A stretch of DNA of 64,000 nucleotides, from positions 3,065-67,064 of the forward strand of contig JAJYIR010000010.1 in NCBI GenBank assembly GCA_021789935.1, in the 5' to 3' direction. Of this stretch, positions 2,915 through 38,287 are shown one piece after another. Position 1 is the stretch's first letter. Every line of letters starts with the position of its first letter. The position numbers and the translations under genes were made by a program. The stretch is from Nitrospirota bacterium (GTDB lineage: Bacteria > Nitrospirota > Thermodesulfovibrionia > Thermodesulfovibrionales > JdFR-88). Under the pieces are notes generated by a model, which saw nothing but the letters and a program-made list of their open reading frames with translations, was not told the DNA's origin and did not search any database.

Positions 2915-2920
2915 AGAAAA

Positions 2921-4261: not shown

Positions 4262-4284
4262 TCCGTCTGATTTTCTGAAGGACA

Positions 4285-4301
4285 GTCCCCTTTTGGGGGA
4301 C
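4285..4301 (+). terminator. Stem-loop after acsC (possible attenuator/terminator, no U-tract)
   Basis: GTCCCC-TTTTG-GGGGAC hairpin 24 nt after the acsC stop, followed by about 290 nt of AT-rich non-coding DNA. Confidence 0.25.
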
Positions 4302-5091: not shown

Positions 5092-5096
5092 AACCG

Positions 5097-7442: not shown

Positions 7443-7454
7443 GGGTGATCTTTC

Positions 7455-8057
7455 ATGGATGAGAAGAAGGAACTGAAAGTTGAGGACATAAAGGCCGGCG
7501 CGCAGGCCCTGGGGTGCCCGGTGCAAAAGGCGCTCTATTACGTGGCGGGCTTTCTCGACGGCCCCATGTGCGGCAAGTGCTTCCCATGTTCCCTAGGGAT
7601 ATTCGAGGCCAAAAGAAGGCTGGAGAATATCGCGGAGGGGCGCGGCACCGGGGCGGACATAAGCGCACTTAAGCGGATAGCCGGACACATGCTTGAGGCC
7701 TCCATGTGCAGGAAGGGGAAGGACACGGCGCGTTTCATCATCGAGTGGATGGAGGACGGCGCGTTTTCCGCACACGCGTTTTTTTCTTCCGGCGCGGCGG
7801 GCAGGTGCCCGGGAAAGCAATGTTCGGGGCTCATAGAGTTCAGGGTCGTCCCGGAGAAATGCGAGAGGTGCGGCCTTTGCAAAGACGCATGCACGCATGG
7901 CTCCATATTCGGAGAGAAGAGAAAACCGTACCTCACGGGTTATCCGCCCTTTGAGATAAGGCAAAAAAGATGCGTGAAATGCGGCGTCTGCCTGCGGGCA
8001 TGTCCCGCCGGCGCGATAGAGATCGCGGACGCGGCCACTGAACTTTTAAAGGCCTGA
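7455..8057 (+). CDS. Small Fe-S protein: stand-alone NuoF-C-terminal (N3-type 4Fe-4S) domain fused to a 2x[4Fe-4S] ferredoxin domain
   Basis: 200 aa. MCGKCFPCSLG...SMCRKG mirrors the CGKCxPCRxG...LCGLG cluster-N3 motif of NuoF. Followed by CERCGLCKDAC and CVKCGVCLRACP. Confidence 0.7.
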   Translation: MDEKKELKVEDIKAGAQALGCPVQKALYYVAGFLDGPMCGKCFPCSLGIFEAKRRLENIAEGRGTGADISALKRIAGHMLEASMCRKGKDTARFIIEWMEDGAFSAHAFFSSGAAGRCPGKQCSGLIEFRVVPEKCERCGLCKDACTHGSIFGEKRKPYLTGYPPFEIRQKRCVKCGVCLRACPAGAIEIADAATELLKA

Positions 8058-8124
8058 AAAAGATTTTTTGATTTTTTTACCCGGTTTTTAAGGAAATCAA
8101 GCTCGAATCAGGAGGAGTCCGCTC

Positions 8125-10203: not shown

Positions 10204-10219
10204 GAATTTTGATTTTTTT

Positions 10220-10249
10220 AATCCGCCCCCGTTTACCCGGGGGCGGATT
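10220..10249 (+). terminator. Strong GC-rich hairpin between the nuoG-like gene and acsB
   Basis: AATCCGCCCCC-(gtttaccc)-GGGGGCGGATT, an 11-bp perfect stem starting 17 nt after the stop. It is flanked by a T-run on the 5' side and an A-rich run on the 3' side, so it is not a textbook + strand intrinsic terminator. Confidence 0.45.
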
Positions 10250-10473
10250 AAATAAAAATCCCATTGAATTTTTCCCCGCCGCCCTCTCCGCGCGTGTGAA
10301 ATACTATTTTTTTTTCTTATTTGTCCATAAGCAGGAATTAGTCACTTTCTTTTTCTGTTATATAATAATAGCTTGGTAAAAAGTTGATTTAGAAAGAAAG
10401 GCTTTTGTAAAATAGATACAATCTGGATGTGGTATCTAATTCCTGTCGAGGATAGAAGGAGGTCGGGGGCAAT

Positions 10474-12672
10474 ATGTCCAAGATAATCGCCACAGCGGCG
10501 ATAAGAGGCGCCAACCGGTTATACAGAGAAGCCGAGGAGTTGCTTGAAAAGGCGATAGCTGAAAAAGGTGAGGGGCACCAGTTTGAATTTGTTGACACCG
10601 CTTTCTATCTTCCTATGATATACGCGATGACAGGCTTTCCGGTTAAGACGCTTGGGGACATGCGGACCGCCCTGGGGTTTGCACGGAAGCTTTTGCATGA
10701 GGAACCCTCGGACCATGTATGGAAGCCGTACCTGGGCGAGGCCCTGGATTCCGGAATGGCCAGCCTTTTTGCCGAGGAGATATGGCTTGCGGCAAGGACC
10801 GTCCTTGGGCTTGAGCCATCCGTTGATCCCGAAACGGGGTATGTCTACAACGGGTTTATAACCGACACCATACAGAGGAACCTGGGCATTCAGCTTGTTG
10901 ACGGCACGATGCCCGGTTTTGCGGCCATCATCGGCGCTGCGCCGGATGACGATACGGCCGTCAAGATAGTCTCCGAACTCCAGGAGAAGAACATCCTCAC
11001 ATTCCTTTCCGGCCATGTCAACGGAAACAGCGTAACCAAACAGCTTTTAAGGAAGGGCGTTGAGCTCGGCTGGGACACAAGGATCGTCCCTCTTGGGCCT
11101 GACACCCGGCACACCCTTTATGCGCTGGACTGGGCAATAAGGGCCTCCCTCATCTTCGGCGGCAAAAAGCCCGGGGATTACAAGGAGCACCTGAAATACC
11201 AGAAGGACAGGGTGTTTGCATTTGCCATGGTGCTTGGAGAGCTTGACGACATAATATGGACAACCGGGGCCGGGGCCATAAACATGGGCTTCCCGGCCGT
11301 TGCCGATACCGATATCCCGGTTGTGCATCCGACCGGCGTTTGCATCTATGAGGAAGTTGACAAGGAATTCGACCACAAGAAGATAGTCCAGAAGGCGATA
11401 GAGGTGAGGGGATTAAAGATCGTGGTTGAGAAGCCCCCGATACCGGTCTCTTACGGCCCGGCCTTCGAAGGAGAGAGGATACGCAAGGAGGACATGTTCA
11501 TAGAGTTCGGGGGCCAGAAGACCCCTGCCTTTGAATGGGTCCGCATGCGTGAGATGGAAGAGGTCGAGGACGGCAAGATCACCATCATCGGCGAAAACTG
11601 GAAAGAGCTCTATGAAAAGGGCGGCAGGATGCCCCTCGGGCTCGTGATAGATGTGGCCGGCAGGAAGATGCAGAAGGACTTCGAGTCTGTCATTGAAAGA
11701 AAAGTGCACCATAGCATAAACGAGGCACAGGGGCTCTGGCACATGGGCCAGAGGGACTTGAACTGGATAAGGATAAGCAACGCGGCAAAGGGAGCAGGCA
11801 TAACCCTGGAACACCTCGGGCAGATATTTTCCACCATGATGAGGCATACGTTCCGTTCCATCATAGACAAGGTGCAGGTCACCATCTATACGGATGAGAA
11901 GGAAGTCCTTGCGGTGAGGGACGAGGCCAGAAAGGCCTATACCGAGAGGGACAAGCGGCTTGGTTCGATGACTGACGAGTCGGTGGAGACTTTTTATTCC
12001 TGCCTTTTGTGCCAGAGCTTCGCCCCAAGCCACGTATGCATCATAACCGCGGAAAGGCTTGGCCTCTGCGGGGCGTACAACTGGCTGGACGCCAGGGCGG
12101 CCTTTGAGATAGACCCCACCGGCGGCAACCAGCCGGTTCCGAAAGGGCAGTTGCTGGACCCGAGATACGGCCGCTACACGGGCGTTGATGAATACCTTAA
12201 AAAATCCACCGGCGGCGCGGTGGAGTCCCTGAACCTGTACACGATAATGGAAAACCCGATGACTTCCTGCGGCTGCTTCGAGTGCATCATAGCCATAGTG
12301 CCGGAGGCAAACGGGGTCATGATAGTGCAAAGGGGGCACCAGGGAATGACGCCTGCCGGAATGAAGTTTTCCACCCTGGCCGGCTCCGTCGGAGGCGGCA
12401 TGCAGACCCCGGGTTTTATGGGCATAGGCAGGAACTTCATCACAAGTAAAAAGTTCCTTGCCGGAGACGGCGGCATAAAGAGGATAGTCTGGATGACCAA
12501 AAACCTCAAAGAAAGCCTGAAGGAGTCCTTCGATGCCAGGGCCGCCGAAGAGGGCGTGCCAGGGCTTCTGGACATGATAGCGGATGAGACCGCGGCTGAG
12601 GATTCCGAAAAGCTCTTGGAATATCTTTCAGGTACGGGGCATCCGGCGCTTGGGATGGACCCGATGATATAA
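10474..12672 (+). CDS. acsB: Acetyl-CoA synthase catalytic subunit (ACS, AcsB/CdhC)
   Basis: 732 aa, colinear by eye with Moorella ACS alpha (FYSCLLCQSFAPSHVCIITAERLGLCGA, LYTIMENPMTSCGCFECI, MQTPGFMGIGR, GHPALGMDPMI C-terminus). Confidence 0.9.
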   Translation: MSKIIATAAIRGANRLYREAEELLEKAIAEKGEGHQFEFVDTAFYLPMIYAMTGFPVKTLGDMRTALGFARKLLHEEPSDHVWKPYLGEALDSGMASLFAEEIWLAARTVLGLEPSVDPETGYVYNGFITDTIQRNLGIQLVDGTMPGFAAIIGAAPDDDTAVKIVSELQEKNILTFLSGHVNGNSVTKQLLRKGVELGWDTRIVPLGPDTRHTLYALDWAIRASLIFGGKKPGDYKEHLKYQKDRVFAFAMVLGELDDIIWTTGAGAINMGFPAVADTDIPVVHPTGVCIYEEVDKEFDHKKIVQKAIEVRGLKIVVEKPPIPVSYGPAFEGERIRKEDMFIEFGGQKTPAFEWVRMREMEEVEDGKITIIGENWKELYEKGGRMPLGLVIDVAGRKMQKDFESVIERKVHHSINEAQGLWHMGQRDLNWIRISNAAKGAGITLEHLGQIFSTMMRHTFRSIIDKVQVTIYTDEKEVLAVRDEARKAYTERDKRLGSMTDESVETFYSCLLCQSFAPSHVCIITAERLGLCGAYNWLDARAAFEIDPTGGNQPVPKGQLLDPRYGRYTGVDEYLKKSTGGAVESLNLYTIMENPMTSCGCFECIIAIVPEANGVMIVQRGHQGMTPAGMKFSTLAGSVGGGMQTPGFMGIGRNFITSKKFLAGDGGIKRIVWMTKNLKESLKESFDARAAEEGVPGLLDMIADETAAEDSEKLLEYLSGTGHPALGMDPMI

Positions 12673-12739
12673 GCGCGCCCGAGGGGCGTGTATAGCCAAA
12701 AACTGAAAAAGAAAAAAGGCACCGGAGGAAAATTTTTCT

Positions 12740-14728
12740 ATGGACCATAAAATAAAGAGCGCGAATGAAGCCGCAGAGAAGATAATCGAGTGGGGTGAAT
12801 CTCAGGGACTGGTCACCTGTTTTGAGAGGGCCGAGAAGATGAAGCCCTGCCCGATAGGCGAATCCGGGGCATGCTGCAAGGTTTGCCATATGGGGCCCTG
12901 CAGGCTTGTGGGCGCCAATGCCGAGGAAGAGGCCAGGGGTGTTTGCGGCGCAAACGTCTCAACGATAGCGGCCAGAAACTTCCTGAGGATGGTTGCGGCC
13001 GGGACGTCGGCCCATTCGGACCACGGAAGGAGCATGGCCCTTACCCTGCTTGCCGTGGGAGAAGGGAAGGCAACCGATTACGATATAAAGGACCCCGAAA
13101 AGCTCCTTCGCATGGCGTCCATACTGGAGATACCGGTTGACGGCAAGGAGATAAAGGAGGTCGCAAGAGTCGTTGCCCTGAAGCTGCTCGAGGATTTCAA
13201 CAGGATAGACGGACAGCTCAATTATGCCAAGCGCGCCCCCCGGAAGACCCGTGACAGGTGGAAGAAATGGGGGATAGAGCCCCGCTCCATAGACAGGGAA
13301 GTGGTGGAGGCCATGCACAGGACGAACATGGGCGTGGATCACGATCCCGATCATCTCCTGCTGCATGCCTTGAAGACCTCGCTTGCCGACGGGTGGGCGG
13401 GCTCAATGATATCCACCGATATTTCAGACGTGCTGTTCGGAACGCCCAGGCCCGTACGGGCCCAGGCGTCCTTCGGCATTTTCAAGGAAGACGAGGTAAA
13501 CGTCGTTGTGCACGGGCATGAGCCCACCCTTGCCGAATCCATTGTGGACGTTGTCTCCGAGCCTGAGCTCGTGGAGTACGCAAAATCCAAGGGGGCCAAG
13601 GGCATAAACCTCGGCGGTATGTGCTGCACGGCAAACGAGGTGCTAATGAGGCACGGGATACCGACCTCCGGCAGCTTCACGAACCAGGAGCTTGGCATAA
13701 TGACGGGGCTGGTGGACGCCATAACGGTAGACGTGCAGTGCATAATGCCGGCCATCGTGGAACTTTCAAAGAAGTTCCACACCAAGGTCATAAGCACATC
13801 GGAAAAAGCCATGACGCAGGGCGCGGTGCACATTCCCTTTGATGAGCACCATGCCAAGGAGTCGGCAAGAAAGATGGTGCGCATGGCCATAGACAACTTC
13901 CCGAACAGGACGAAAAAAGGCAAGTACGTGGAATCTGACAAGGCTCCGGTGATAGCCGGGTTCTCACATGAGTATATAGAATACATGCAGGGCGGAAAGT
14001 GGCGCGCCTCCTTCAGGCCGCTCAATGACGCTATAATGGCGGGCCGCGTACGCGGCATCGTGGGCCTTGTGGGATGCGACAATCCCAGGCTGCCCGCGAG
14101 CGGATATTTCAAGTCCCTTGCGATTGAGTTCATCAAGCAGGACGTCCTTGTGGTGACCACCGGATGCGGCGCTGGCGTTTACGGTGCGGCCGGGTACCTT
14201 ACCCCGGAGACCGCCCGTGAGCACGCGGGGCCCGGGCTCCAGGAAGTCTGTGAGGCCATAGGCATACCGCCGATACTTCACATGGGCTCCTGCGTCGACA
14301 ATTCAAGAATACTCACCGTCGCATCGGCCATGGCGGCCGAGGGCGGGCTTTCGGATGAGATAGGCGGGATGCCCGCCGTGGGTATCGCCCCGGAGTGGAT
14401 GAGCGAGAAGGCCATAGCCATAGCCTGCTACTTCGCGGCCTCAGGCGTTCCGGTTATATTCGGAGGCGGACAGTCCCCGGTGGCGGCCAGCAAGGAAGTT
14501 ACGAACATCATGACCAATGTGTGGTACGAAAGGTTCATGGGCAGCCTGCATTTCGAGAAGGACCCGGAAAAGGTGCTGTCCCTTGCCCTTGAGTACATAG
14601 ACAAGGCCAGGGCCGCCCTGAAGCTCAAAAAGTACGAGCCAGGCAGGTTCGGCACGGAGCGCGTGCTTATGGACATGGCAGCAAGAAGAGACATCGGGAA
14701 AGCCGCAAAACCGCACATAGGCCTTTAA
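12740..14728 (+). CDS. acsA: Ni-dependent carbon monoxide dehydrogenase catalytic subunit
   Basis: 662 aa. N-terminal Cys-rich cluster B/D motif (CPIGESGACCKVCHMGPCRL), HGHEP, GMCCTANE, VGCDNP, GSCVDNSR blocks typical of CooS/AcsA. Confidence 0.9.
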   Translation: MDHKIKSANEAAEKIIEWGESQGLVTCFERAEKMKPCPIGESGACCKVCHMGPCRLVGANAEEEARGVCGANVSTIAARNFLRMVAAGTSAHSDHGRSMALTLLAVGEGKATDYDIKDPEKLLRMASILEIPVDGKEIKEVARVVALKLLEDFNRIDGQLNYAKRAPRKTRDRWKKWGIEPRSIDREVVEAMHRTNMGVDHDPDHLLLHALKTSLADGWAGSMISTDISDVLFGTPRPVRAQASFGIFKEDEVNVVVHGHEPTLAESIVDVVSEPELVEYAKSKGAKGINLGGMCCTANEVLMRHGIPTSGSFTNQELGIMTGLVDAITVDVQCIMPAIVELSKKFHTKVISTSEKAMTQGAVHIPFDEHHAKESARKMVRMAIDNFPNRTKKGKYVESDKAPVIAGFSHEYIEYMQGGKWRASFRPLNDAIMAGRVRGIVGLVGCDNPRLPASGYFKSLAIEFIKQDVLVVTTGCGAGVYGAAGYLTPETAREHAGPGLQEVCEAIGIPPILHMGSCVDNSRILTVASAMAAEGGLSDEIGGMPAVGIAPEWMSEKAIAIACYFAASGVPVIFGGGQSPVAASKEVTNIMTNVWYERFMGSLHFEKDPEKVLSLALEYIDKARAALKLKKYEPGRFGTERVLMDMAARRDIGKAAKPHIGL

Positions 14729-14812
14729 AGCGTGGCTTTAAGAGCGCGGTTTTTGCTTTGGTAGGAGTTATTCGAGGTATGGAAAAACAGATGGGCCGGA
14801 GGAGGGCGAAAT

Positions 14813-15649
14813 ATGCATAAGATTATCGAAAAAAAGCTGCTTCGCCCCCCTGATGTATTTTTCTACAAAATCAGCGCCCCGCTTGTGGCCGCGAAGGCCA
14901 AGGCCGGGCAGTTCGTGATAATCAGGCTCCATGAGAAAGGCGAAAGGATACCCCTTTCCCTGGCCGGCATAGATGCGGCCGAAGGGACAATAAGCCTTAT
15001 AGTTATGGCTGTGGGCAAGACGACGGGCGAGATGGCAACCCTTGAGGAAGGCGGCGAGATAAGGGATGTCTGCGGTCCTTTGGGAAATCCCACGCATACG
15101 GAAAACGCGGGGAAGGTAATCCTCGCGGGGGGCGGGTTCGGGATAGCGCCGCTTTATCCCATAGGCAAGGCCTTCCGCGAGGCCGGAAGCAACGTGGCCG
15201 CGCTGATGGGAGCAAGGAGCAAAAGCCTTCTGATATACGAAAACGAGATGAGAGGCATAAGCGACAAGGTCCTGATAACTACCGATGACGGCAGCGCCGG
15301 CATGAAGGGCATAATCACCGACGCGCTCAAAGCGGAGCTTGAGGCCTATGGGGCGGACACGGTGATGGCGGTAGGCCCGGCCCCGATGATGAAGGCCGTG
15401 TGCGAGGCCACCAGGCCGTTTGGAGTGAGGACCATCGTGAGCCTGAACGCTATAATGATAGACGGCACCGGCATGTGCGGCGGCTGCCGCGTGCGTGTTG
15501 GCGATAAGACGAAATTCGCCTGCATTGACGGGCCGGACTTCGATGGGCATCTTGTGGACTGGGACTGCCTGATAAACAGGCAGAGGATGTACAAGACGGA
15601 AGAAAAGGAGTCGTTTGAGGACTGGAAAAAACGGCATAATCTGCCCTGA
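14813..15649 (+). CDS. nfnA: NfnA-like / sulfide dehydrogenase-type FAD and [2Fe-2S] subunit (PyrK-like)
   Basis: 278 aa. FNR-like fold sequence with C-terminal GTGMCGGCRV...C cluster motif. Immediately upstream of a GltD-like partner. Confidence 0.75.
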   Translation: MHKIIEKKLLRPPDVFFYKISAPLVAAKAKAGQFVIIRLHEKGERIPLSLAGIDAAEGTISLIVMAVGKTTGEMATLEEGGEIRDVCGPLGNPTHTENAGKVILAGGGFGIAPLYPIGKAFREAGSNVAALMGARSKSLLIYENEMRGISDKVLITTDDGSAGMKGIITDALKAELEAYGADTVMAVGPAPMMKAVCEATRPFGVRTIVSLNAIMIDGTGMCGGCRVRVGDKTKFACIDGPDFDGHLVDWDCLINRQRMYKTEEKESFEDWKKRHNLP

Positions 15650-15685
15650 GAGGGAGCAGAGGAACGAAAAATAAAAAATAAAAAT

Positions 15686-17098
15686 ATGGCTGAAGAGAAG
15701 AAGACCCCAAAGAAATTGAATCCGAAACGGACCCCGGTGCGGGAGCAGGACCCCGCGCTTCGCAGGCGCAACTTTGAGGAAGTGAGTTTCGGGTATGGCC
15801 CGGAAGAAGCGGCGCTTGAAGCCGGACGGTGCCTGGGATGCAAGAACAAACCATGCGTTGCCGGCTGCCCGGTGGGCGTGCCGATACCTGAGTTCATAGC
15901 TGCCATGGTGAATGGGGATTTTGCGGAGGCATACAGGATAATCAGGAGCGCAAATGTGATGCCGGCTGTCTGCGGCAGGGTATGCCCGCAGGAAAACCAG
16001 TGCGAAGGGGCCTGCACCCTCGGTAAAAAACATGAGCCGGTGGCAATCGGCAGGTTGGAGAGGTTTTGCGCTGGCTGGCAGATGGAAAAAGGCGGTGGAG
16101 CAAGTTCTGAGCCCGCGGCGTCCACCGGTATGAAGGTGGCGGTTGTGGGCAGCGGCCCCTCCGGTATAACATGCGCGTACGACCTTGCGCGACTGGGCCA
16201 CACGGTCACGGTGTTCGAGGCCCTGCACGAGCCTGGCGGGGTGCTTTTCTACGGTATTCCGGAATTCCGCCTTCCAAAAAAGATAGTGGCCGGGGAGATA
16301 GACACGCTCAGGCAGATGGGTGTCCGGATAAGGACGAACTCGGTGGCCGGCAAGCTTGTCTCCATGGAGGAGTTGATGAAAGAATTCGACGCCTGCTTCA
16401 TAGGCGTTGGCGCGGGACTTCCCAGGTTCATGGGCATCCCCGGGGAGGACTTGAACGGGGTCTATTCCGCCAACGAGTTCCTGACGCGCACCAACCTGAT
16501 GAGGGCCTACAGGTTTCCCGAGTATGATACGCCCATAAAGACGGGAAAGCGCGTGGCGGTAATAGGCGGCGGCAACGTGGCCATGGATTCCGCAAGGACA
16601 GCGATGAGGCTTGGCGCGCAAGAGGTCACGCTCGTTTACAGGCGCTCGGAGGCGGAGCTTCCCGCCCGCGCCGAGGAGGTCCATCACGGAAAAGAAGAGG
16701 GCCTGCGTTTCGAGATGTGCACACTTCCCACAAGGATAATAGGCGAGGGAGGATGGGTGAAGAGCATCGAGTGCGTACGCATGGAATTGTGCGAGATGGA
16801 CAAATCCGGGCGGAGACGCCCCAATCCGCTTGCGGGCTCTGAATTCGAGATCCCGGTGGATACTGTAATAATGGCTATCGGCACCGGCGCAAACCCTCTT
16901 CTGACCGGGACTGCCACGGGGCTTGCTTTAAACAGGGGGTATATTGTGGCGGACCCTGAAACCGGCAAGACGAGCGTTCAGGGCGTTTATGCCGGGGGGG
17001 ACATCGTAACCGGCGCGGCCACGGTGATCTCGGCAATGGGTGCCGGGAGAAAAGCCGCCCGGGCCATTCACGAGTACCTTTCCTGCATGAAGCGCTAA
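15686..17098 (+). CDS. nfnB: NfnB-like / glutamate synthase small-subunit-like NADPH-dependent oxidoreductase
   Basis: 470 aa. N-terminal CLGCKNKPCVAGCPVGV...C Fe-S motifs and two Rossmann motifs (VVGSGPSG, VIGGGNVAMD). Confidence 0.8.
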   Translation: MAEEKKTPKKLNPKRTPVREQDPALRRRNFEEVSFGYGPEEAALEAGRCLGCKNKPCVAGCPVGVPIPEFIAAMVNGDFAEAYRIIRSANVMPAVCGRVCPQENQCEGACTLGKKHEPVAIGRLERFCAGWQMEKGGGASSEPAASTGMKVAVVGSGPSGITCAYDLARLGHTVTVFEALHEPGGVLFYGIPEFRLPKKIVAGEIDTLRQMGVRIRTNSVAGKLVSMEELMKEFDACFIGVGAGLPRFMGIPGEDLNGVYSANEFLTRTNLMRAYRFPEYDTPIKTGKRVAVIGGGNVAMDSARTAMRLGAQEVTLVYRRSEAELPARAEEVHHGKEEGLRFEMCTLPTRIIGEGGWVKSIECVRMELCEMDKSGRRRPNPLAGSEFEIPVDTVIMAIGTGANPLLTGTATGLALNRGYIVADPETGKTSVQGVYAGGDIVTGAATVISAMGAGRKAARAIHEYLSCMKR

Positions 17099-19636: not shown

Positions 19637-20719
19637 ATGGGGGAAGCAAGCGGGAGTATTTATGATTCCCTGAGGAAAAAAGGGGTATCAAGAAGAGACT
19701 TCATGAAGTTCTGCTCTCTGATGGCGGCGACCCTGGCCCTGCCGGTAGGCGGTGCGGCCAAGATTGCGGAGGCGCTCGAAAAGGCCCCGAAGCCCACACT
19801 CGTATGGCTTGAATTCCAGGACTGTTGCGGCAATACTGAATCCTTCCTGAGGGCAAATGATCCGACGGTCGCCCAGATCGTTCTCGATCTCTTGTCAGTG
19901 GACTACCACGAAACTATAATGGCTCCCGCCGGCAAGCAGGCGGAAAAATCTCTCTACGATGTTGTTAAAAACCAGAAAGGCAAATACCTTGTTGTTGTTG
20001 AGGGGGCAATTCCGCTTAAAGACGGCGGCGTTTACTGCACCGTGGGGGGCAGGGCGGCCATCGATATAGCCAAAGAGGTCTGCGGGAACGCCATGGCCAC
20101 CATAGCGATGGGGGCTTGCGCCTGGGACGGAGGTATACCCGGGGCTGCGCCGAATCCCACCGGCGCTGTCGGGGTAAAAGACGCTGTCAAGGACATCACC
20201 CTCATCAATCTTCCGGGGTGTCCGGCAAATGTCGTAAACCTCACCGGCACCATCGTGCATCTGCTCACCTTCGGGAGCCTTCCGCTTACGGATTCCATGG
20301 GCAGGCCGCTTTTTGCCTATGGCCACAGGATACACGACGACTGCGAACGCAGGGCCCACTATGATGCCGGCCGGTTCGTTCAGATATGGGGAGACGAGGG
20401 GCACAAAAAAGGATGGTGCCTTTACCAGATGGGCTGCAAGGGGCCGGAGACCTTCAAGAACTGCCCGGCCCAGAGGTGGAACCAGGGCACAAGCTGGCCC
20501 GTCGAGGCGGGGCATGGATGCATCGGGTGCGCGGCTCCGCATTTCTGGGACACGATGACCCCGTTTTACAAGAGGATCGAGCAAGTGCCGGGCTTTGGAG
20601 TCGAGGCCACCGCTGACAAGTTCGGGGCGGGTCTGGCCGCAGCCACCGCCGCCGGCCTTATAGTCCACAGGATAGCGAGGGCGTCCAAAAAGAAATCATC
20701 CGAAGAGGAGGAGAAATAA
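19637..20719 (+). CDS. [NiFe] hydrogenase small subunit, Tat-exported, membrane-anchored (group 1)
   Basis: 360 aa. Twin-arginine signal SRRDFMKF. Fe-S ligand blocks (GACAWDGGIPGAAPNPTGA, PGCPAN, HDDCERRAHYDAG, WCLYQMGCKGPETFKNCP, GHGCIGC). C-terminal TM anchor. The proximal-cluster motif is atypical (DCCGNTES). Confidence 0.9.
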   Translation: MGEASGSIYDSLRKKGVSRRDFMKFCSLMAATLALPVGGAAKIAEALEKAPKPTLVWLEFQDCCGNTESFLRANDPTVAQIVLDLLSVDYHETIMAPAGKQAEKSLYDVVKNQKGKYLVVVEGAIPLKDGGVYCTVGGRAAIDIAKEVCGNAMATIAMGACAWDGGIPGAAPNPTGAVGVKDAVKDITLINLPGCPANVVNLTGTIVHLLTFGSLPLTDSMGRPLFAYGHRIHDDCERRAHYDAGRFVQIWGDEGHKKGWCLYQMGCKGPETFKNCPAQRWNQGTSWPVEAGHGCIGCAAPHFWDTMTPFYKRIEQVPGFGVEATADKFGAGLAAATAAGLIVHRIARASKKKSSEEEEK

Positions 20720-20722
20720 TCC

Positions 20723-22432
20723 ATGCCTAAGATTGCGATTGATCCTATAACCAGGATCGAGGGACATCTGAGAATCGAAGCCCAGGTGGACGCGGGGCAG
20801 GTAAAGGACGCATGGGCTTCGGGCACCATGTTCAGGGGCATCGAGCTTATACTTAAAAACAGGGACCCAAGGGACGCCTGGGCATTTGCCCAGCGGATAT
20901 GAGGCGTTTGAACAACGGTTCACGCCACCAGCTCCGTGAGAGCTGTAGAAAACGCGCTTCAAATTACGATTCCGGACAACGCCAGGCTCATAAGGAACCT
21001 TATCACAGGCATACAGTATGTGCAGGACCATACCATTCATTTTTACCACCTGCACGCCCTGGACTGGGTTGATATTGTAAGCGCCCTGAAGGCGGACCCG
21101 GGCAAGACCTCGGACCTCGCCCAATCGATTTCGGACTGGCACAACTCCAGCAAGGTATATTTCGCAGGAGTGCAGGACAAGCTCAAATCATTTGTCGCCG
21201 GAGGACAGTTGGGCCTCTTCGCCAACGGCTACTGGGGACACCCTGCCTACAAGCTGCCGCCCGAGGCCAATCTCATGGCGGTGGCGCATTACCTTGAGGC
21301 CCTGGACTGGCAGAAGAACATCATACGCATCCATGCCATACTTGGCAGCAAAAACCCGCATGCGCAGACCTATCTGGTGGGCGGGATGGCGACGGCCATA
21401 AACCCCAATGACGAATCCACGCTAAATGCAAACAGCATCGCGCATATAATGCAGATGGCCCAGACCGCAAAGGAGTTCGTGGAGAAGGTCTATGTGCCGG
21501 ACCTTCTGGCCATAGCTTCTTTCTACAAGGACTGGGCAGGATACGGGGCGGGGGTCGGCAACTATCTGGCCTACGGCGAGTTCCCCAAGGACAATGTCTC
21601 CAATACGGACAACCTCTTTTTGCCCAGGGGTATGATCCTCGGCAAGGACCTGTCAAAAGTCCATCCGGTGGACCAGCAGAAGGTGGCCGAGTACATAGCG
21701 CATTCGTGGTACACCTACCCGGAGGGCAACAGCGCCTCCAAGCATCCGTGGAACGGCGTTACGGACTACGATTATACCGGGCCCAAGCCGCCGTTTGAGT
21801 TCCTTGAAACTGACAAGAAATACAGCTGGGTCAAGGCGCCGCGTTATGAGGACAAGCCCATGGAGGTGGGCCCGCTTGCAAGGATGCTCGTTGCCTACGC
21901 GTCCGGCCACGAAAGGGTGAAGGAAGTTGTGGACGGCGCCCTTAAGAAACTGGGAGTAGGGTCGGCCGCGCTCTTTTCAACCCTGGGCAGGACGGCAGCC
22001 AGGGGGATTGAAACCCTGATCGTGGCCGAGGCTATCCCGGGATGGGTAGGACAGCTCTCTGATAACATCAAGAAAGGGGACCTGCGCATACACGACAACT
22101 CCAAGTGGGAACCCTCCACCTGGCCGGCCGAGGCCAAGGGCTACGGCTTCCACGAGGCACCGAGGGGCGCCCTTTGCCACTGGGTAAGGATAAAAGACGG
22201 GAAGATCGCCAACTACCAGTGTGTAGTCCCCAGCACCTGGAACGCCTCGCCCAGAGACGCCAAGGGACAAAGGGGCCCATATGAGACGGCCCTCCTGGGC
22301 ACACCCGTGGCAAAACCGGAGGAGCCTCTGGAGATATTGAGGACGGTGCACTCGTTTGATCCCTGCCTCGCCTGCGCTGTCCACATAACGGACGTAAACA
22401 GGAAAGAGCTTCTCAAGGTAAAGGTATCTTGA
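20723..22432 (+). CDS. [NiFe] hydrogenase large subunit, read through two in-frame TGA codons (20900-20902 and 20909-20911; putative selenocysteines)
   Basis: ATG at 20723 follows the SD ggaggag. The N-terminal 71 codons ([22 protein letters not shown]...[29 protein letters not shown]) are in frame with the 498-aa track ORF 20936..22432. C-terminal DPCLACAVH plus a protease-cleaved extension. 569 codons in total, normal for group 1. Confidence 0.85.
20903..20945 (+). promoter_or_regulatory. Two tandem RNA stem-loops at or after the in-frame TGAs (candidate SECIS-like elements)
   Basis: H1 (20903-20926): GGCG-[UU bulge]-UGAAC-(AACG)-GUUCA-CGCC. It starts right after TGA-1 and contains TGA-2 in its stem. 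H2 (20929-20945): CAGCUC-(CGUGA)-GAGCUG, with its loop 23-35 nt after the two TGAs. Pairing was checked base by base; function not shown. Confidence 0.3.
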
Positions 22433-22447: not shown

Positions 22448-23110
22448 ATGGCCACTGAGCGGAAGAAGACTTATGTCTGGGAAATCCCGGTCCGGTTGAC
22501 CCATTGGGTCAATTTCTTCTCTATCATCTTCCTTTCGGTAACGGGGTTGTACATTGGCGGGCCTTTTATCCATCCCACCTCCAGTCAAAGCTACACAATG
22601 GGCTGGATGAGGTTTATCCACCTGCTTGCGGGCTATACATTTCTGATGATGGTTATCATCAGGGTTTATTGGGCTTTTGCCGGCAACAGGTACGCCAATT
22701 GGCGGGTGTTTTTGCCCCTTACCCGCAGACAGAGACACGACCTTGGAGACGCCACCAGGTATTACCTGTTCCTGAGCAAAAAACCCCCGTACGCGGCCGG
22801 GCACACCATGTGCGCGGGGGCCGCATATTTTGTGCTGTTTCTGCTGTTTCTGTTTCAGATATTCTCCGGGTTTGCGCTTTTTTCGTACAACAGCCCCGGG
22901 TTTTTCCATACGCTCCTGGGCGGATGGCTTACTGCGTTCATGAATATCCAGGCGATAAGGTTCTGGCACCATATGGTCATGTATTTCATATGGGTGATCG
23001 CCCTTATCCACGTGTATCTGGCTGTATGGCTGGACTCCGTTGAGGGCAACGGACTTATGGGCTCCATCTTCGGTGGGTATAAGTTCATAACCGGCAAGGA
23101 ATGGGAATAA
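22448..23110 (+). CDS. Ni/Fe-hydrogenase b-type cytochrome subunit (HyaC/HupC family)
   Basis: 220 aa, 4 TM helices. N-terminal VWEIPVRLTHWVNF and conserved His positions typical of the family. Directly follows the large subunit. Confidence 0.85.
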   Translation: MATERKKTYVWEIPVRLTHWVNFFSIIFLSVTGLYIGGPFIHPTSSQSYTMGWMRFIHLLAGYTFLMMVIIRVYWAFAGNRYANWRVFLPLTRRQRHDLGDATRYYLFLSKKPPYAAGHTMCAGAAYFVLFLLFLFQIFSGFALFSYNSPGFFHTLLGGWLTAFMNIQAIRFWHHMVMYFIWVIALIHVYLAVWLDSVEGNGLMGSIFGGYKFITGKEWE

Positions 23111-23146: not shown

Positions 23147-23701
23147 TTGGATAAACCGGCGGACAGCCATGGCATTCGGTCCCCCCAGGGGGCAACAACC
23201 GTTCTGGGTATAGGCAACATCCTTATGGGCGATGAAGGGGCCGGGATCCGGGCGCTTGATGCCCTCCGGGAACAATATGAGTTCCCGGAGGGCGTGCGCT
23301 TTCTGGATGGCGGCACAATGGGCCTGGACCTTATTTATTATCTGGAGGGCACAGACAGGCTGCTCATGATAGATGCCGTCATCATGGGCGCGCCTCCAGG
23401 CACCGTCAAGGTCTTTGGCGGCCAGGACATACCTTCCGTGCTTGCCGGGAAATTTTCGGTCCACCAGATAGGGTTGCAGGACCTGTTCTTTGCGCTCGAC
23501 ATATTGGGCAGGAGGCCTTCTGACGCCTGCCTGGCGGGCATTGAGCCCAAAGAAGTGGAACTGGGGCTGGAGCTTTCCCCGGAGATAGAAAAAGCGCTTC
23601 CGGTCCTTGTCGATGCTGCTGTGAAAAGGCTTGATGGCTGGGGAATAAGAGTGAGGAAAAAGCAGGATGTGCCTGGCCATACCGTCCAAAATAATCAGTA
23701 A
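23147..23701 (+). CDS. Hydrogenase maturation endopeptidase (HyaD/HybD family)
   Basis: 184 aa. VLGIGNILMGDEGAG N-terminal motif and a ...HQIG... block. TTG start as in the track; the exact start is uncertain. Confidence 0.8.
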   Translation: MDKPADSHGIRSPQGATTVLGIGNILMGDEGAGIRALDALREQYEFPEGVRFLDGGTMGLDLIYYLEGTDRLLMIDAVIMGAPPGTVKVFGGQDIPSVLAGKFSVHQIGLQDLFFALDILGRRPSDACLAGIEPKEVELGLELSPEIEKALPVLVDAAVKRLDGWGIRVRKKQDVPGHTVQNNQ

Positions 23702-32441: not shown

Positions 32442-33800
32442 TTAATAAAGTTTGGGCAGGTATCCCGTACGGTCGTCAAAGTCCAGCACATGGCACTTGT
32501 TGCAAAGCTGCCTTTGATATGGGCCGAATGTTTTTTTAATGTCCCTGCCGTAGTATGGAGCGTTTACCACGTATGCGCCATAAGGGCTATACTCCGTATT
32601 AGGGTCGTACGTGGGGCCAGGGACCGAGTTTGCAAGGAACGTCGTCCTGGTGTCCCACCTGGTGGACCACTCGAAGGCAGAGGCGTGTGCCCTGTGGCAA
32701 GTAAGGCATGAGGGGAAACCGGGGATGGACGCTGTGGGGCCGTTAGTATTTTCTCCATTGAGCTGCGATGGCTTGGATATAATTCTTTCAAAAGGCACCA
32801 GCGACAGCCATGCGCCGGTTGCGTTTGAGGTCTTATTCAAGAGATTCCCGGTCGCTATGTAGGAGTTATATAACAGGGGGACCCCCTCAGCCGATGTTCC
32901 TGCGACGGGGTGATGGGTGAATTGGTTCCATGGGTGGCAATTTTCGCACCACAGGGACATGTCATTGTAAGGTTGATACATATGGGTGCCGTAATCCACA
33001 TGATGCCTGTTGTCGGCCGTTTCGGCAAAATTATAAGCCGGTGAACTGTCCGCCGCCGCCATCGGCGCACCGTAAGAGAAAGTGTAAGGGGCCAGGCTGT
33101 TGCCTTTGTAATGGGTGTCCCCAAGGAGCCTGTAGTTGCCGCAAATAGTGCCTGAATGAACATTCGAACAGCCATAGGAGCCCGACATGCTCACCGGCTT
33201 CTGTCCGCGGCCGGTCCCTCCGTTTACCTGTCCGTGGGGGTCATGACAGCTCGTGCACATGAGGGCGGCAGACGGATAGGTGCCACCCGGTGCGTTTGTG
33301 AAATTGGTGTCGGCAGCCATGTCAAAGTCCTTGGCGACCACGTTATGACCGTGGTCCTGACCATTTATCAAATATGAGACCCCGTTTTCCAGCGCCGTAT
33401 ACGTAACGGTAAGGCTCATCCAATAGAAGTCCCCTCCGGGATTGATATTGACGTTCCCGTCAACGCTGAGAACCCGGTAGGGCATTCCTTTTTGCGCGTG
33501 GCAATTAAGGCATGTGGAGCTGTCGTCTGATCCCCTTAGCAAAAACGGGCTTACCGCGTTGCTGACGCTGCCGTTTGGATTTACAGGCTTGCCGTACCAG
33601 TTTTTCACGCCATTTATGGAGGTCTGGTCCGGGGAGAATTTGGGTGTGGTACCCGAGGATATAGAATTGTGCATCGTGTGGCATCCCTCGCAAAAGCCTG
33701 CGCCGCCGTTGTGAAAGGCATGGACGCTGCCCGGTCGCGCAACTATCACGACAACCGCCGCGAGGACCGCAAAAACCGCATTGAGCAGATGTTTTTTCAT
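32442..33800 (-). CDS. OmcS-family hexaheme c-type cytochrome (secreted)
   Basis: 452 aa, signal peptide, six CXXCH motifs (CEGCH, CLNCH, CTSCH, CENCH, CLTCH, CNKCH). Colinear by eye with Geobacter sulfurreducens OmcS: FHNGGAGFCEGCHTMHNS, NPGGDFYW, APGGTYPSAALMCTSCHDPHG, LSLVPFE, CLTCHRAHASAFE, YYGR...FGPYQRQLCNKCH. Confidence 0.85.
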   Translation of the reverse strand: MKKHLLNAVFAVLAAVVVIVARPGSVHAFHNGGAGFCEGCHTMHNSISSGTTPKFSPDQTSINGVKNWYGKPVNPNGSVSNAVSPFLLRGSDDSSTCLNCHAQKGMPYRVLSVDGNVNINPGGDFYWMSLTVTYTALENGVSYLINGQDHGHNVVAKDFDMAADTNFTNAPGGTYPSAALMCTSCHDPHGQVNGGTGRGQKPVSMSGSYGCSNVHSGTICGNYRLLGDTHYKGNSLAPYTFSYGAPMAAADSSPAYNFAETADNRHHVDYGTHMYQPYNDMSLWCENCHPWNQFTHHPVAGTSAEGVPLLYNSYIATGNLLNKTSNATGAWLSLVPFERIISKPSQLNGENTNGPTASIPGFPSCLTCHRAHASAFEWSTRWDTRTTFLANSVPGPTYDPNTEYSPYGAYVVNAPYYGRDIKKTFGPYQRQLCNKCHVLDFDDRTGYLPKLY

Positions 33801-33986
33801 AAGGATTCCTTCCGGTTCTGACGTTTTAAATTAAATTAAATTGAAATTAACCATTCAGAGTCCCAAAGCGGGATGATTAAACTGTCTCATCGTATCCGCT
33901 TTAAAATCCGTTCCCGGCAAAGGATTTTATTTTTATTTGACATATCCGCCTTTTTTATCCTGGGATTCGCCCGATGTATTTTCCAT

Positions 33987-35758: not shown

Positions 35759-38287
35759 GTGAAAAAAAGATACGAGCCCGGGGAGATCGAGCTTAAATGG
35801 CAGGAGATCTGGGCCCAAAAGGGAAAAAACATTTTTTCCAGCAGGGTTTCAAAGACAGCCCCCAAATTCTATTGCCTGGAAATGTTCCCTTATCCCTCGG
35901 GTAAGATACATATGGGCCATGTAAGGAATTACGCCATCGGTGATGTCATAGCCCGGTACAAGAGGATGCGCGGTTATAACGTGCTTCATCCAATGGGTTG
36001 GGATGCGTTCGGCCTGCCCGCCGAAAACGCCGCCATAAAAGAAGGTGTTCACCCGGCCCGCTGGACCCACGAAAATATCGCTTACATGAAAAAGCAGCTG
36101 GTAAGGCTTGGGCTTTCCTATGACTGGTCCAGGGAGTTGGCCACGTGTCTGCCGGAGTACTACAGGTGGAACCAGTGGTTTTTCATCAAAATGTATGAAA
36201 AAGGCATTGCCTACAGAAAGGCCTCCTTCGTAAACTGGTGTCCCTCCTGTTCCACAGTGCTCGCAAATGAGCAGGTGATAGAGGGCAAATGCTGGCGCTG
36301 TGACAGCACGGTGATACAGAAGGAACTGGAACAGTGGTTTTTAAGGATAACGGCTTATCAGCAGGAGCTTCTCGATGCCGCGGACAGCCTTGCCGGATGG
36401 CCTCAAAAGGTGGTCCTGATGCAGAAAAACTGGATCGGCCGCAGCGAGGGGCTTGAGGCAATGTTCCGGGTGGAGGGGAGCGATGAGAGCATAGTCGTAT
36501 TTACGACAAGGGCGGATACCCTTTTCGGGGCCAGGTTCATATGTCTGGCGCCGGCCCATCCGCTGGCGGAAAAATTCGCTGAACCGGGCGCTCTTGCGAA
36601 AATCAGGGAGCATTACGGCAAGGTGGACGAGAAGCATGGTCTTTTTACCGGGCGGTACGCCATCAACCCCGCCAACGGTGAAAAGATACCCATTTATGTG
36701 GCCAATTTCGTATTGATGGAATACGGCACCGGGGCGATAATGTCTGTCCCGGCCCACGACCAGCGTGATTTTGAGTTTGCGCAAAAATATGGCCTTCCGG
36801 TGAAGGTGGCGGTAAAACCTGAAGGGGGAGAGGAAATCCCGGAGGGTAAGGCCTTCGAGGAGGACGGTATTCTTGCAGACAGCGGGCCATTCACCGGATT
36901 AAAGAGCGCTGAGGCCCGCGCAAAGATAGCCGGGTTCATTGAAGGCAAGGGCATGGGCAGGCGCATGGTGAATTACCGGTTGAGGGACTGGGGGATATCC
37001 CGCCAGCGCTACTGGGGGACGCCTATCCCGATAATCTACTGCGAACACTGCGGGGCCGTGCCGGTGCCGGAGAAGGACCTTCCCGTTATTTTGCCTGAAG
37101 ATGTGAAATTCACCGGGACGGGCGCCTCTCCGCTTGCGGAGGCTGAGAACTTTGTAAATACGGTCTGTCCTTCGTGCGGCGGAAAGGCCCGGAGGGAAAC
37201 GGACACGATGGATACGTTTATGGACTCATCCTGGTACTATGTCCGCTATTGTTCGAGAAAAGACGAGCCTGCCCTGGATAAGGAAAACCTCAGGTATTAC
37301 ATGCCGGTGGACCAGTATGTTGGCGGTGTGGAGCACGCAGTCCTGCACCTGCTGTATTCCAGATTTTTCATGCGCGTGATAAGGGACCTCGGTCTGTCCG
37401 AGGTGCCGGAGCCTTTCCAGAGACTGCTTACCCAGGGTATGGTCTGCATGGAGACCACCCGCTGCCCGGAGCACGGATGGCTTTATCCCTCCGAAGCCGA
37501 GGGAGGGGTGTGCGCCAAATGCGGGAGGTCCGTGGAGCGTGGCCGGACCGAAAAGATGTCTAAATCGAAGAGAAACGTCGTTGACCCCGACCACCTGATT
37601 AAAACATACGGCGCGGACACCGCGAGGCTTTTCTCGCTTTTTGCCGCCCCCCCGGAAAACGATCTTCAATGGTCTGAAAAAGGGGTGGAGGGCGCTCAAA
37701 GGTTCATACTGAGGGTCTGGGCGTTCATACATGACAACATGGAAAGACTTGAGGCCGTGAAGGGGCAGCTCCCGGAGGGGAAATCGCCCCTTTTGAGGAA
37801 GACCCATCAGACCATAATGCGTGTCACAAGGGACATCGAGCGTGAATATCATTTCAATACCGCCATAGCCGCCATGATGGAACTGGTCAATACGCTTACG
37901 GCCTTTGAACCGGCTGAATCCGGACCCGAAAACCGGGAAGACCTCCGCCAGATGCGCTTTGCCGTGGAGAAGATGCTTCTTCTTTTGAGCCCATTTTGTC
38001 CGCATGTGGCGGAAGAGCTGTGGGAGGCCATCGGAATGCCCGCATCCATACGGCTTGAGTCCTGGCCCGGGTATGATGAGGAAGCGGCGAGGGAAGAGGA
38101 GATAGAGCTCGTAATACAGGTGAACGGGAAGGTCCGGACGAAGATAATGGTGCCTCATGGGCTGCCTGACGATGAGCTCAAGACCCGGGCCATGGCGCTT
38201 CCCAGGATACAGGACGCTGTCGCCGGCAGGCAGGTAATAAACATATTTGCCGTAAAGGGAAAGCTTGTAAACATAGTGATCAGATGA
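35759..38287 (+). CDS. leuS: Leucine--tRNA ligase
   Basis: 842 aa. HMGH and KMSKS class-I signatures and a CP1 editing domain. GTG start. Confidence 0.95.

Follow-up and report, generated by a model that had tools for sequence, protein, structure and literature searches.

The locus described here raises the question of how a [NiFe] hydrogenase can be made from a large-subunit gene that carries in-frame TGA codons at both cysteine positions of its N-terminal metal-binding motif (L1). [NiFeSe] hydrogenases have been studied intensively because one selenium ligand alters activity, catalytic bias and the behaviour towards O2, and in all characterised cases that we know of it is the C-terminal motif that supplies the selenium, as a terminal ligand. 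A preliminary description of the locus had noticed the two TGAs and proposed that they are decoded as selenocysteine (Sec). We have followed up this proposal in the window, the whole 64-kb stretch of DNA that was analysed, and in related loci from other assemblies. The two TGA codons are confirmed as real and are no artefact, and the Sec interpretation is supported. Two conserved UGAs at metal-ligand cysteines, together with a SECIS-type hairpin downstream, most likely mean a hydrogenase with two selenium ligands. We consider it probable that both L1 UGAs are read as Sec under one SECIS, the hairpin H2, giving a complete Group 1 uptake hydrogenase.

Re-translation agrees with the earlier claim of one frame that is uninterrupted save for two TGAs: from ATG 20723 it stays open to the TGA at 22430-22432 and holds 569 sense positions, with UGA-1 and UGA-2 as sole interruptions (Table 1). 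The large-subunit motifs are all present, namely RIEGH, L1 as R-I-U-G-V-U, the canopy APRG and L2 as DPC548-L-A-C551-A-V-H554, so that the C-terminal motif is all-Cys as described before. Fifteen residues beyond H554 (22385-22429) form the C-terminal extension for protease cleavage. The best structure match of the large subunit is the Allochromatium vinosum enzyme (3MYR_B, 742 bits), and the top matches are all Group 1 structures or models. With its L1 and L2 motifs, the former with UGA at both Cys positions, and its C-terminal extension, 20723..22432 encodes the large subunit of a Group 1 membrane-bound, periplasmic [NiFe] uptake hydrogenase. The mechanically listed ORF of 498 aa (20936..22432) lies in the same frame as both TGAs and starts with GTG at 20936; no Shine-Dalgarno sequence was found before this GTG, and an exact-protein look-up of the 498-aa product returned no record.

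The operon is complete, with a TAT small subunit, a cytochrome b and a HyaD/HybD protease, and this arrangement is kept in most relatives; the cytochrome b anchor gene is found at 28/30 UxxU and 3/4 CxxU loci. The small subunit retains the standard medial-cluster motif GCKGP, which had been noted earlier. Its proximal-cluster motif reads C63-C64-G65-N66 (19823-19834) in place of the standard CxGC (alignment to 1H2A_S and 8POU_S), and CxGN/CxGD is the proximal-cluster motif in small subunits of this hydrogenase family.

Table 1. Features of the hydrogenase operon and of the L1 region (positions in the window).
Feature	Positions	Strand	Basis
Small subunit, twin-arginine signal	19637..20719	+	TIGR00391, 445 bits; TIGR01409
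Shine-Dalgarno GAGGAGGAG	20705..20713	+	9 nt upstream of ATG 20723
Large subunit, full-length, 569 codons including two UGAs	20723..22432	+	translation, profile and structure-sequence matches
UGA-1, codon 60, aligned with Cys76 of E. coli Hyd-1 (terminal Ni ligand)	20900..20902	+	BLASTP alignment
H1: 4-bp lower stem, UU bulge, 5-bp upper stem holding UGA-2, loop AACG	20903..20926	+	MFE fold
UGA-2, codon 63, aligned with Cys79 of E. coli Hyd-1 (Ni-Fe bridging ligand)	20909..20911	+	BLASTP alignment
Sec-type genes: reduced synonymous variation at codons +5 to +14, counted from UGA-1	20915..20944	+	third-position entropy
H2, candidate SECIS core: stem CAGCUC/GAGCUG, loop CGUGA (20935-20939)	20929..20945	+	MFE fold, covariation
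b-type cytochrome membrane anchor subunit	22448..23110	+	TIGR02125, 154 bits
HyaD/HybD-type maturation endopeptidase	23147..23701	+	TIGR00072, 154 bits

That the TGAs replace both L1 cysteines is borne out by BLASTP against E. coli HyaB (49% identity), in which codons 60 and 63 fall on Cys76 and Cys79 with no gaps across the L1 stretch. Among related loci of other assemblies in which the motif is readable (n=157), 30 have TGA at both positions and 123 carry a Cys codon at each; the mixed form TGC/TGA occurs in four and TGA/TGC in none. With the window counted in, TGA stands at the UGA-1 site in 31/158 and at the UGA-2 site in 35/158 readable loci. Random decay had been called unlikely, and both codons are indeed TGA in 30 further independent assemblies, with the second alone in 4. 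The TGA-bearing loci come from assemblies labelled Nitrospirota/Thermodesulfovibrionales, 'Deltaproteobacteria', Thermodesulfobacteriota, Methylomirabilota and Chloroflexota; their proteins share 68-95% identity, and the accessory genes have diverged to about 36-45%. Orthologues have either TGA or TGC/TGT at precisely these two codons, and their flanking sequence is conserved. The 120 closest protein clusters comprise 115 truncated calls, 113 of them of exactly 498 aa, and 5 genuine 569-aa CxxC proteins. The gene therefore has the properties expected of a bacterial selenoprotein gene, that is, an in-frame UGA aligned with Cys of close homologues in an ORF that is otherwise intact and under purifying selection.

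If the UGAs are recoded, a signal is expected in the mRNA downstream of them. The MFE fold of 20897-20960 reproduces the hairpin H2 as described before, with a fold energy of -7.4 kcal/mol and a G at loop position 2, while the MFE z-score of this region is only -1.4. H2 starts 17 nt past UGA-2 and 26 nt past UGA-1, and its apical loop lies 26 nt and 35 nt, respectively, from the U of these codons. Three of its six pairs show compensatory double changes (AU/UA/GC, GC/CG and UA/UG/GC), and the covariation score was reached by 0/500 shuffles, with slid controls all far lower. These pairs were counted on the named structure, RNAalifold on 35 Sec-type sequences having given no consensus beyond a trivial 2-pair structure. 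All six pairs of the register can form in 27/33 distinct Sec-type sequences and in 0/100 distinct Cys-type sequences; in one Sec-type subclade a hairpin is retained, but its register is shifted (CGGCCUC-GGU-GAGGUCG). All Sec-type sequences (33/33) have GUG in the loop, and the residue at this site is Val in Sec-type and Ile in Cys-type proteins; apart from this residue, Val72, nothing informative separates the two types of protein. Over 20915..20944 the mean third-position entropy is ~0.49 bits in Sec-type genes against ~1.2 bits for the same codons in Cys-type genes, and in the flanks it is 1.5-1.9 bits at most four-fold sites. These comparisons show H2 to be a hairpin specific to the Sec type and under selection at the RNA level.

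A search against Rfam gave no match, either for the whole window at gathering thresholds or for 20850-21050 at a permissive E-value; we are aware of no Rfam family that models bacterial SECIS elements in general. The UGA-to-loop distance used by bSECISearch is about 16-37 nt. From UGA to hairpin the distance in E. coli fdhF is 11 nt; the 17 and 26 nt found here exceed it, which counts against a SECIS. H2 is a stem-loop shortly 3' of a UGA with a G within the first two positions of the apical loop, as the rule for SECIS elements has it (PMC13582414). Its covariation, its restriction to TGA-bearing genes and the distances of 26 and 35 nt bear out the earlier SECIS-like label, and H2 fits a bacterial SECIS that would serve both UGAs. 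Two larger structures were considered and rejected. H2 might have been the tip of a longer hairpin, but the synonymous constraint stops abruptly past codon +14; a pseudoknot of the H2 loop with UCACG (20920-20924) would have one zero-length loop and shows no covariation.

The second hairpin that had been described, H1, is confirmed by the MFE fold (-8.0 kcal/mol), but it is not Sec-specific, its upper stem being kept in Cys-type relatives. Its sequence is mostly invariant by pair counts. In the upper stem TGA pairs with GTT in 27/33 Sec-type sequences (synonymous background 16%) and TGC with GTG in 70/92 TGC Cys-type sequences (background 36%), and this stem is found even in E. coli hyaB. H1 is thus real, with an upper stem that is family-wide.

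Taken together, we propose the following sequence of events. Translation would begin at ATG 20723, and SelB-GTP-Sec-tRNASec would read through both L1 UGAs, with the single SECIS-type hairpin H2 directing both insertions. The upper stem of H1 would lie at the ribosome entrance, ~6 nt past UGA-1, and may slow the ribosome and so aid recoding. Sec60 would then be the terminal Ni ligand and Sec63 the Ni-Fe bridge; as C548 and C551 remain Cys, the active site would have two Se and two S. Maturation would follow the standard route, with the TAT small subunit, the cytochrome b, the HyaD protease and C-terminal cleavage after H554, to yield the large subunit of a periplasmic, membrane-anchored Group 1 uptake hydrogenase. 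We infer both that Sec is the residue inserted at the two UGAs and that one SECIS suffices for them. To our knowledge, decoding of two UGAs 9 nt apart via one SECIS has no experimental demonstration in any hydrogenase.

The alternative that survives best is that both UGAs, or UGA-1 alone, are recoded as Cys, through a SelB-dependent tRNA-ReC (selC*) or through Cys-tRNASec under scarce selenium, so that the product would be a normal [NiFe] hydrogenase with four Cys, or a mixed population. Since the tRNA-ReC route would use the same SECIS, H2 does not separate Sec from Cys recoding. Genes of the tRNA-ReC type occur in about 56% of UxxU Group 4 genomes and in about 2% of other Sec-type genomes (PMC13582414), and the nesting of CxxU variants within UxxU clades shows that the first position switches easily between Cys and UGA. 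However, a single change from TGA to TGC/TGT would then be neutral or beneficial, and yet the TGAs and the SECIS persist over more than 30 deeply diverged lineages with synonymous sites near saturation, while the second position stays TGA in all members of the Sec clades. We therefore regard recoding as Cys as unlikely, though it deserves to be kept in mind.

Far less credible is a pseudogene, or a locus from which only a 59-residue peptide and/or the truncated 498-aa protein from GTG 20936 is made. Gene callers and NCBI models do list the 498-aa product, and TGA is a normal stop in the source genome. RIEGH and both metal ligands of L1 would be missing from such a product, and its GTG has no Shine-Dalgarno sequence. 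The 59 codons 5' of UGA-1 are free of stops in 35/35 Sec-type sequences, the aligned start position is ATG in 33/35, and in these 59 codons the differences per site amount to 0.19, 0.09 and 0.54 for the first, second and third codon position. GV between the two stops and TTVHATSS after them are conserved in frame. This pattern in the aligned sequences shows the 59 N-terminal codons to be under purifying selection, with the frame selected on both sides of the UGAs. The Sec-type genes recovered full-length (22 from a genome scan, and others) have 569-572 codons and an intact DPCxxC; DPC(L/M)AC is the C-terminal motif in every Sec-type relative checked. Further lesions, which would mark a true pseudogene, are absent from the 35 Sec-type orthologues within the sequence recovered, and the partner genes of the operon are intact. 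Errors of sequencing or assembly, or a genetic code in which UGA means Trp or Gly throughout the genome, have only the prior in their favour and can practically be dismissed: the same TGAs recur in 34 further contigs, which stem from various studies and assemblers and differ in their synonymous flanks, UGA ends 17/42 window genes, and Ni is not ligated by Trp or Gly.

That TGA is an ordinary stop elsewhere had been pointed out before. It is the commonest terminator in the window, ending among others the gene at 7455..8057, leuS (35759..38287) and the large-subunit gene itself, and the only 2 in-frame TGAs among the 42 genes are those of the large subunit. Genes for selA, selB, selD and tRNA-Sec were found neither in the 64-kb window nor in 1.36 Mb of related loci, and ARAGORN reported zero tRNA and zero tRNA-Sec in the window and 34 Sec-type loci. 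When E. coli SelA, SelB and SelD were used as tblastn queries for the window and all loci, the only matches were weak SelD-like ones in Cys-type loci, which we read as probable HypE. A scan of TGA-interrupted ORFs in the rest of the window gave no convincing second selenoprotein: the FdhA-type Cys/Sec-His catalytic motif is absent on visual inspection from a NuoG/Fdh-like 692-aa protein, and neither of the two multihaem cytochromes has a G-U-P type site. In the class Thermodesulfovibrionia, selenoproteins are a common finding (MccSep family; PMC13510729), and UxxU motifs are present in other predicted selenoproteins (PMC13188914).

Beyond the single locus, we lean towards a widespread natural Group 1 lineage with a [NiFeSe2] centre, with two Sec three codons apart, one SECIS and an assisting H1. 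This lineage would span Nitrospirota, Methylomirabilota, Chloroflexota and Thermodesulfobacteriota, hidden by annotation as truncated 498-aa proteins, and H1 would be an older, family-wide mRNA hairpin. Selenium at the other terminal position and at the bridging position would constitute a new first coordination sphere, and in anoxic habitats the benefit may lie in a tuned reactivity or affinity for H2. The genes would also offer a tractable case of two UGAs spaced by only 9 nt, in which decoding by SelB in bacteria can be studied. As they are miscalled as proteins without the L1 motif, hydrogenase surveys and classifiers probably drop or misclassify them, and would so have missed abundant H2-oxidising bacteria of anoxic groundwater and sediment.

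The preliminary description had suggested a new architecture. This holds for Group 1, for which we found no report of N-terminal UxxU in the literature, but in the energy-converting [NiFe] hydrogenases of Group 4, N-terminal CxxU, UxxC and UxxU have already been predicted in silico (Takano et al. 2026, Sept; PMC13582414); according to that paper, Group 1 had shown C-terminal UxxC and, beyond it, just two CxxU sequences. The Group 4 Sec-type genes resemble ours in several ways (PMC13582414): the C-terminal motif is Cys, a downstream SECIS-like hairpin carries a G as the first or second base of its loop, one SECIS is proposed for both UGAs, and the genes are truncated in public annotation. In Group 4e the loop G is likewise the first base of a Val GUG codon, with Ile in Cys-type relatives. 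In contrast to the Hyc/Ech-like, cytoplasmic-facing multisubunit complexes of Group 4, the window enzyme is a periplasmic Group 1 enzyme whose operon is of the TAT-exported heterodimer type, with a cytochrome b and a HyaD protease. Among the TGA-bearing loci UxxU prevails, with CxxU rare and UxxC absent.

With the classical Group 1a [NiFeSe] enzymes of Desulfomicrobium baculatum (1CC1) and D. vulgaris Hildenborough (2WPN) it shares the periplasmic Group 1 heterodimer, UGA with SECIS and a Sec Ni ligand, the latter predicted here. It is nevertheless not of this type, as had been recognised: the classical Sec is the terminal ligand in the C-terminal DPUxxC, whereas the window has DPCLAC, and the large subunit scores only 318-339 bits against these enzymes. 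The NCBIfam models agree, with 304 bits (498-aa fragment) and 81 bits (59-aa fragment) for HysA (NF045518, cutoff 780) and 229 bits for the small subunit (NF045520, cutoff 470). The closest solved structures are A. vinosum MBH (PDB 3MYR) and the E. coli/Salmonella Hyd-1/Hyd-5 type (742, 686 and 631 bits), which share the operon logic of cytochrome b and specific protease; these are four-Cys enzymes with proximal CxGC or CxCC, unlike the CxGN/CxGD of the window family. In the engineered E. coli Hyd-1 variants C76U and C79U, Sec occupies one or the other of the two positions homologous to those where we predict it here, again in a Group 1 membrane-bound enzyme. They are active, with 3% and 13% of native activity, and have a lower KM for H2 but less O2 tolerance than the native enzyme (Evans et al. 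2021, PMC8020662), which makes Sec at these sites chemically plausible. These are single, artificial, UAG-programmed changes in an O2-tolerant enzyme, whereas in the window family both sites would be Sec, naturally and in a conserved manner. Since this is the best-understood group of hydrogenases, a direct comparison with Hyd-1 C76U and C79U is possible.

The hydrogenase large subunit is encoded by a single frame of 569 codons, and translation meets only two internal stops, both TGA, at codons 60 and 63. In the mechanical ORF list this gene appears as two pieces, one of 59 aa (20723..20902) and one of 498 aa with its start at GTG 20936, both of which NCBIfam assigns to the [NiFe] hydrogenase large-subunit family. 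In an ungapped stretch of the BLASTP alignment with E. coli HyaB (49% identity), codon 60 aligns with Cys76, the terminal Ni ligand, and codon 63 with Cys79, the Ni-Fe bridge. The preliminary description had placed the TGAs at the cysteine positions of the N-terminal L1 motif and had read the C-terminal motif as all-Cys, unlike classical [NiFeSe] enzymes. Both statements are borne out. The C-terminal ligands C548 and C551 are plain cysteines, and H554 and then a 15-residue extension come after them. Upstream of ATG 20723 lies a strong Shine-Dalgarno sequence (GAGGAGGAG), and none comparable precedes GTG 20936. A product of 498 aa would be missing the RIEGH proton-relay motif as well as two of its four metal ligands, hence translation must cross both UGAs. 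That the UGAs are recoded and not terminating is nearly certain.

Positions of the features discussed in the text
Feature	Position	Strand	Details
Wood-Ljungdahl / acetyl-CoA synthase cluster	1170-17098		
Pterin-binding methyltransferase; two CdhD-family subunits; ACS beta; CODH	within 1170-17098		
NuoE-like, NuoF-like (with CBS domains) and ferredoxin-like genes	within 1170-17098		
PyrK-like and GltD-like pair	within 1170-17098		
NuoG/formate-dehydrogenase-like protein	within 1170-17098		692 aa
Small subunit	19637..20719		TAT signal; NCBIfam
Proximal Fe-S cluster motif of small subunit	19823-19834		residues 63-66
Large subunit	20723-22432	+	
Ile codon before UGA-1	20897-20899		
UGA-1	20900-20902		codon 60
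H1	20903-20926		MFE fold
UGA-2	20909-20911		codon 63
5-bp L1 hairpin	20909-20922		
H2	20929-20945		stem CAGCUC/GAGCUG, loop CGUGA
Large-subunit residue 485	22175-22177		Cys
b-type cytochrome	22448..23110		NCBIfam
HyaD/HybD maturation protease	23147..23701		NCBIfam
Two adjacent paralogous multihaem cytochromes	32442-35291	-	452 and 434 aa, six CxxCH each; Paired_CXXCH_1

The same truncation is found in many different sources. When the 498-aa fragment was searched against 5.8 billion proteins, 115 of the 120 closest clusters were truncated calls with the same cut point, 113 having exactly 498 aa, while the five 569-aa matches (73-74% identity) are genuine CxxC proteins. Public protein sets, NCBI annotation of MAGs among them, carry a 498-aa 'nickel-dependent hydrogenase large subunit' with the internal GTG start and without the L1 motif. 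Owing to such models, surveys of predicted proteins will overlook or misclassify the Sec-type lineage. We inspected the DNA of 160 related loci, 80 of them from species-representative genomes and 80 from metagenomes, and the motif was readable in 157. TGA/TGA (UxxU) was present in 30 and TGC/TGA (CxxU) in four (L017, L084, L092, L149), TGA/TGC (UxxC) in none, and 123 had TGC or TGT at both positions (Cys-type), so that both L1 codons vary among orthologues in the way for which a check had been proposed. Labels on the Sec-type loci are Nitrospirae/Thermodesulfovibrionales, 'Deltaproteobacteria', Thermodesulfobacteriota, Methylomirabilia/Rokubacteria and Chloroflexota/Anaerolineae. Their large subunits share 68-95% identity with the window protein, while identity is down to ~36-45% for their cytochrome b and protease genes. 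Full-length Sec-type genes have 569-572 codons and an intact DPCxxC. Additional disruptions, a sign of pseudogenes, were sought in the 59 codons upstream of UGA-1, which are free of stops in all 35 Sec-type sequences (33 of them with ATG at the aligned start). Differences per site in this region amount to 0.19, 0.09 and 0.54 at codon positions 1, 2 and 3, a pattern that indicates purifying selection on a translated region.

The two stem-loops that had been drawn behind the TGAs, H1 and H2, are both present in the MFE fold of 20897-20960. In the alignment of the 35 Sec-type sequences three of the six H2 pairs are altered on both sides yet still paired (AU/UA/GC, GC/CG and UA/UG/GC); the covariation score was matched by none of 500 shuffles, and every slid control scored far lower. 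The few unpaired cells are confined to one subclade (L009, L010, L081-L083), in which the hairpin is retained with its register shifted by one nucleotide (CGGCCUC-GGU-GAGGUCG). Certain compensations even change amino acids, Ser to Cys or Ala in one arm and Ala to Gly in the other. The register is fully paired in 27/33 distinct Sec-type sequences versus 0/100 distinct Cys-type sequences, and the Sec-type folds locally at lower energy (Mann-Whitney p = 4e-10). Synonymous-site entropy at codons +5 to +14 (20915-20944) averages ~0.49 bits in Sec-type and ~1.2 bits in Cys-type genes, with 1.5-1.9 bits at most flanking four-fold sites, and the constraint in Sec-type genes ends abruptly past H2. Bacterial SECIS elements consist of a short apical hairpin with a G at loop position 1 or 2, and the UGA-to-loop range of bSECISearch is 16-37 nt; the start of the H2 loop is 26 nt away from the U of UGA-2 and 35 nt away from that of UGA-1, both inside this range. 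The loop GUG is invariant and forms the Val72 codon (GTG in 33/33 distinct Sec-type sequences), a position occupied by Ile in the Cys-type, and Group 4e Sec-type hydrogenases were reported to show the same relation of loop G and Val versus Ile (PMC13582414). Covariation, Sec-type specificity, loop and spacing thus support the proposal that H2 is a SECIS; judged from sequence, its properties match those described for bacterial elements.

We predict that both UGAs are read as Sec, and consider this likely. The principal alternative is decoding of one or both as Cys through a SelB-dependent tRNA-ReC, a tRNA enriched in the UxxU genomes of Group 4 hydrogenases (PMC13582414). This is less likely, because a Cys-identical product would abolish the selection that retains two TGAs and a SECIS, and these are kept across lineages in which synonymous sites are otherwise near saturation. 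Neither a tRNA nor a sel gene was found in the 64-kb window or in 1.36 Mb of related loci; MccSep, a validated selenoprotein family, is reported to be common in class Thermodesulfovibrionia (PMC13510729). Other readings are excluded: a pseudogene by the recurrence in independent assemblies, the kept frame and the purifying selection on the upstream codons, a sequencing or assembly error by that recurrence, and a reassigned code by the use of TGA as an ordinary stop, already pointed out in the preliminary description, which is the commonest in the window and terminates 17 of 42 genes (in-frame TGAs in these genes: two, both in the hydrogenase large subunit).

In a neighbour-joining tree without support values, Sec-type genes form three groups interleaved with Cys-type clades, namely a large clade with the window, a Methylomirabilota group and a Chloroflexota group. 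All three CxxU sequences included are nested within UxxU clades, and the second, bridging position is TGA in every Sec-type locus (30 UxxU and four CxxU). This suggests that the first, terminal-ligand Sec reverted to Cys while the bridging Sec was always retained. In the Sec-type subclade with L009, L010 and L082 the tblastn match of the small subunit stops ~300-600 bp upstream of the large-subunit start (the spacing in the window is 3 bp), and the longer gap may hold an additional small gene or a C-terminal extension.

H1 is almost invariant in the Sec-type set, one pair being broken in six sequences. Across the whole family the third bases of codon 63 and of the Val66 codon covary: TGA is paired with GTT in 27/33 Sec-type sequences (GTT background 16%), TGC with GTG in 70/92 of the Cys-type sequences that have TGC (GTG background 36%), and at the equivalent positions of E. 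coli hyaB TGT is matched by GTA. The L1 codons Cys-Thr-x-Val-His (TGN-AC...GT-N-CA) form a 5-bp mRNA hairpin, which looks like a conserved structure at the Ni-binding motif of Group 1 hydrogenase genes. Because the wobble covariation spans Cys-type and Sec-type genes, the upper stem of H1 is an older, family-wide hairpin, and its role as a Sec device is rejected. It might have been co-opted in Sec-type genes; with UGA-1 in the A site, the upper stem would start ~6 nt downstream, the usual place of recoding-stimulating structures. The Ile codon before UGA-1 is AUA in 22/30 UxxU genes (AUA makes up 29% of all Ile codons in the same genes), and AUC in 97/115 Cys-type genes. A context effect on recoding may underlie the AUA bias.

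Several further observations concern the protein and its neighbors. Residue 485, adjoining the canopy Arg, is Cys in the window protein and Gly in E. coli HyaB, A. vinosum and the five close CxxC homologues. The proximal motif of the small subunit is C-C-G-N, compared with C-x-G-C in standard Group 1 and C-x-C-C in O2-tolerant enzymes, Asn replacing the canonical Cys20. Relatives have CAGN, CAGD or CAGC, and as Asn/Asp is also the rule among Cys-type loci (84 CAGN), this is by sequence comparison a family trait unlinked to Sec. The FdhA-type Cys/Sec catalytic motif was not seen in the NuoG/formate-dehydrogenase-like protein, and neither multihaem cytochrome contains an in-frame TGA or a MccSep-family G-U-P site.

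Among solved structures the large subunit matches best the membrane-bound hydrogenase of Allochromatium vinosum (3MYR_B, 742 bits), with Salmonella Hyd-5 and E. coli Hyd-1 next, whereas classical [NiFeSe] enzymes are far more distant (318-339 bits). The latter carry one Sec in the C-terminal DPUxxC; lacking this, the window enzyme stands outside that family. The nearest precedent comes from a report that described, in silico, Group 4 hydrogenases with CxxU, UxxC and UxxU as N-terminal motifs (PMC13582414, Sept 2026), while the window enzyme is of the Group 1 uptake type. That report calls UxxC and UxxU previously unrecognised and, citing Baltazar 2011, gives Group 1 and 3 Sec variants as C-terminal, save listed CxxU sequences (two Group 1, one Group 3). 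Two recent prokaryotic selenoprotein catalogues contain no N-terminal UxxU hydrogenase, and full-text literature searches turned up no account of a UxxU enzyme in Group 1. The data confirm the earlier observation and support its interpretation. The enzyme would be a new form of Group 1 uptake [NiFe] hydrogenase, with a predicted Sec-x-x-Sec L1 motif, and it is widespread but concealed by truncated annotation. The engineered Hyd-1 variants C76U and C79U are each active, with a lowered KM for H2 and poorer O2 tolerance (PMC8020662), and a natural double variant in presumably anaerobic lineages would fit these properties.
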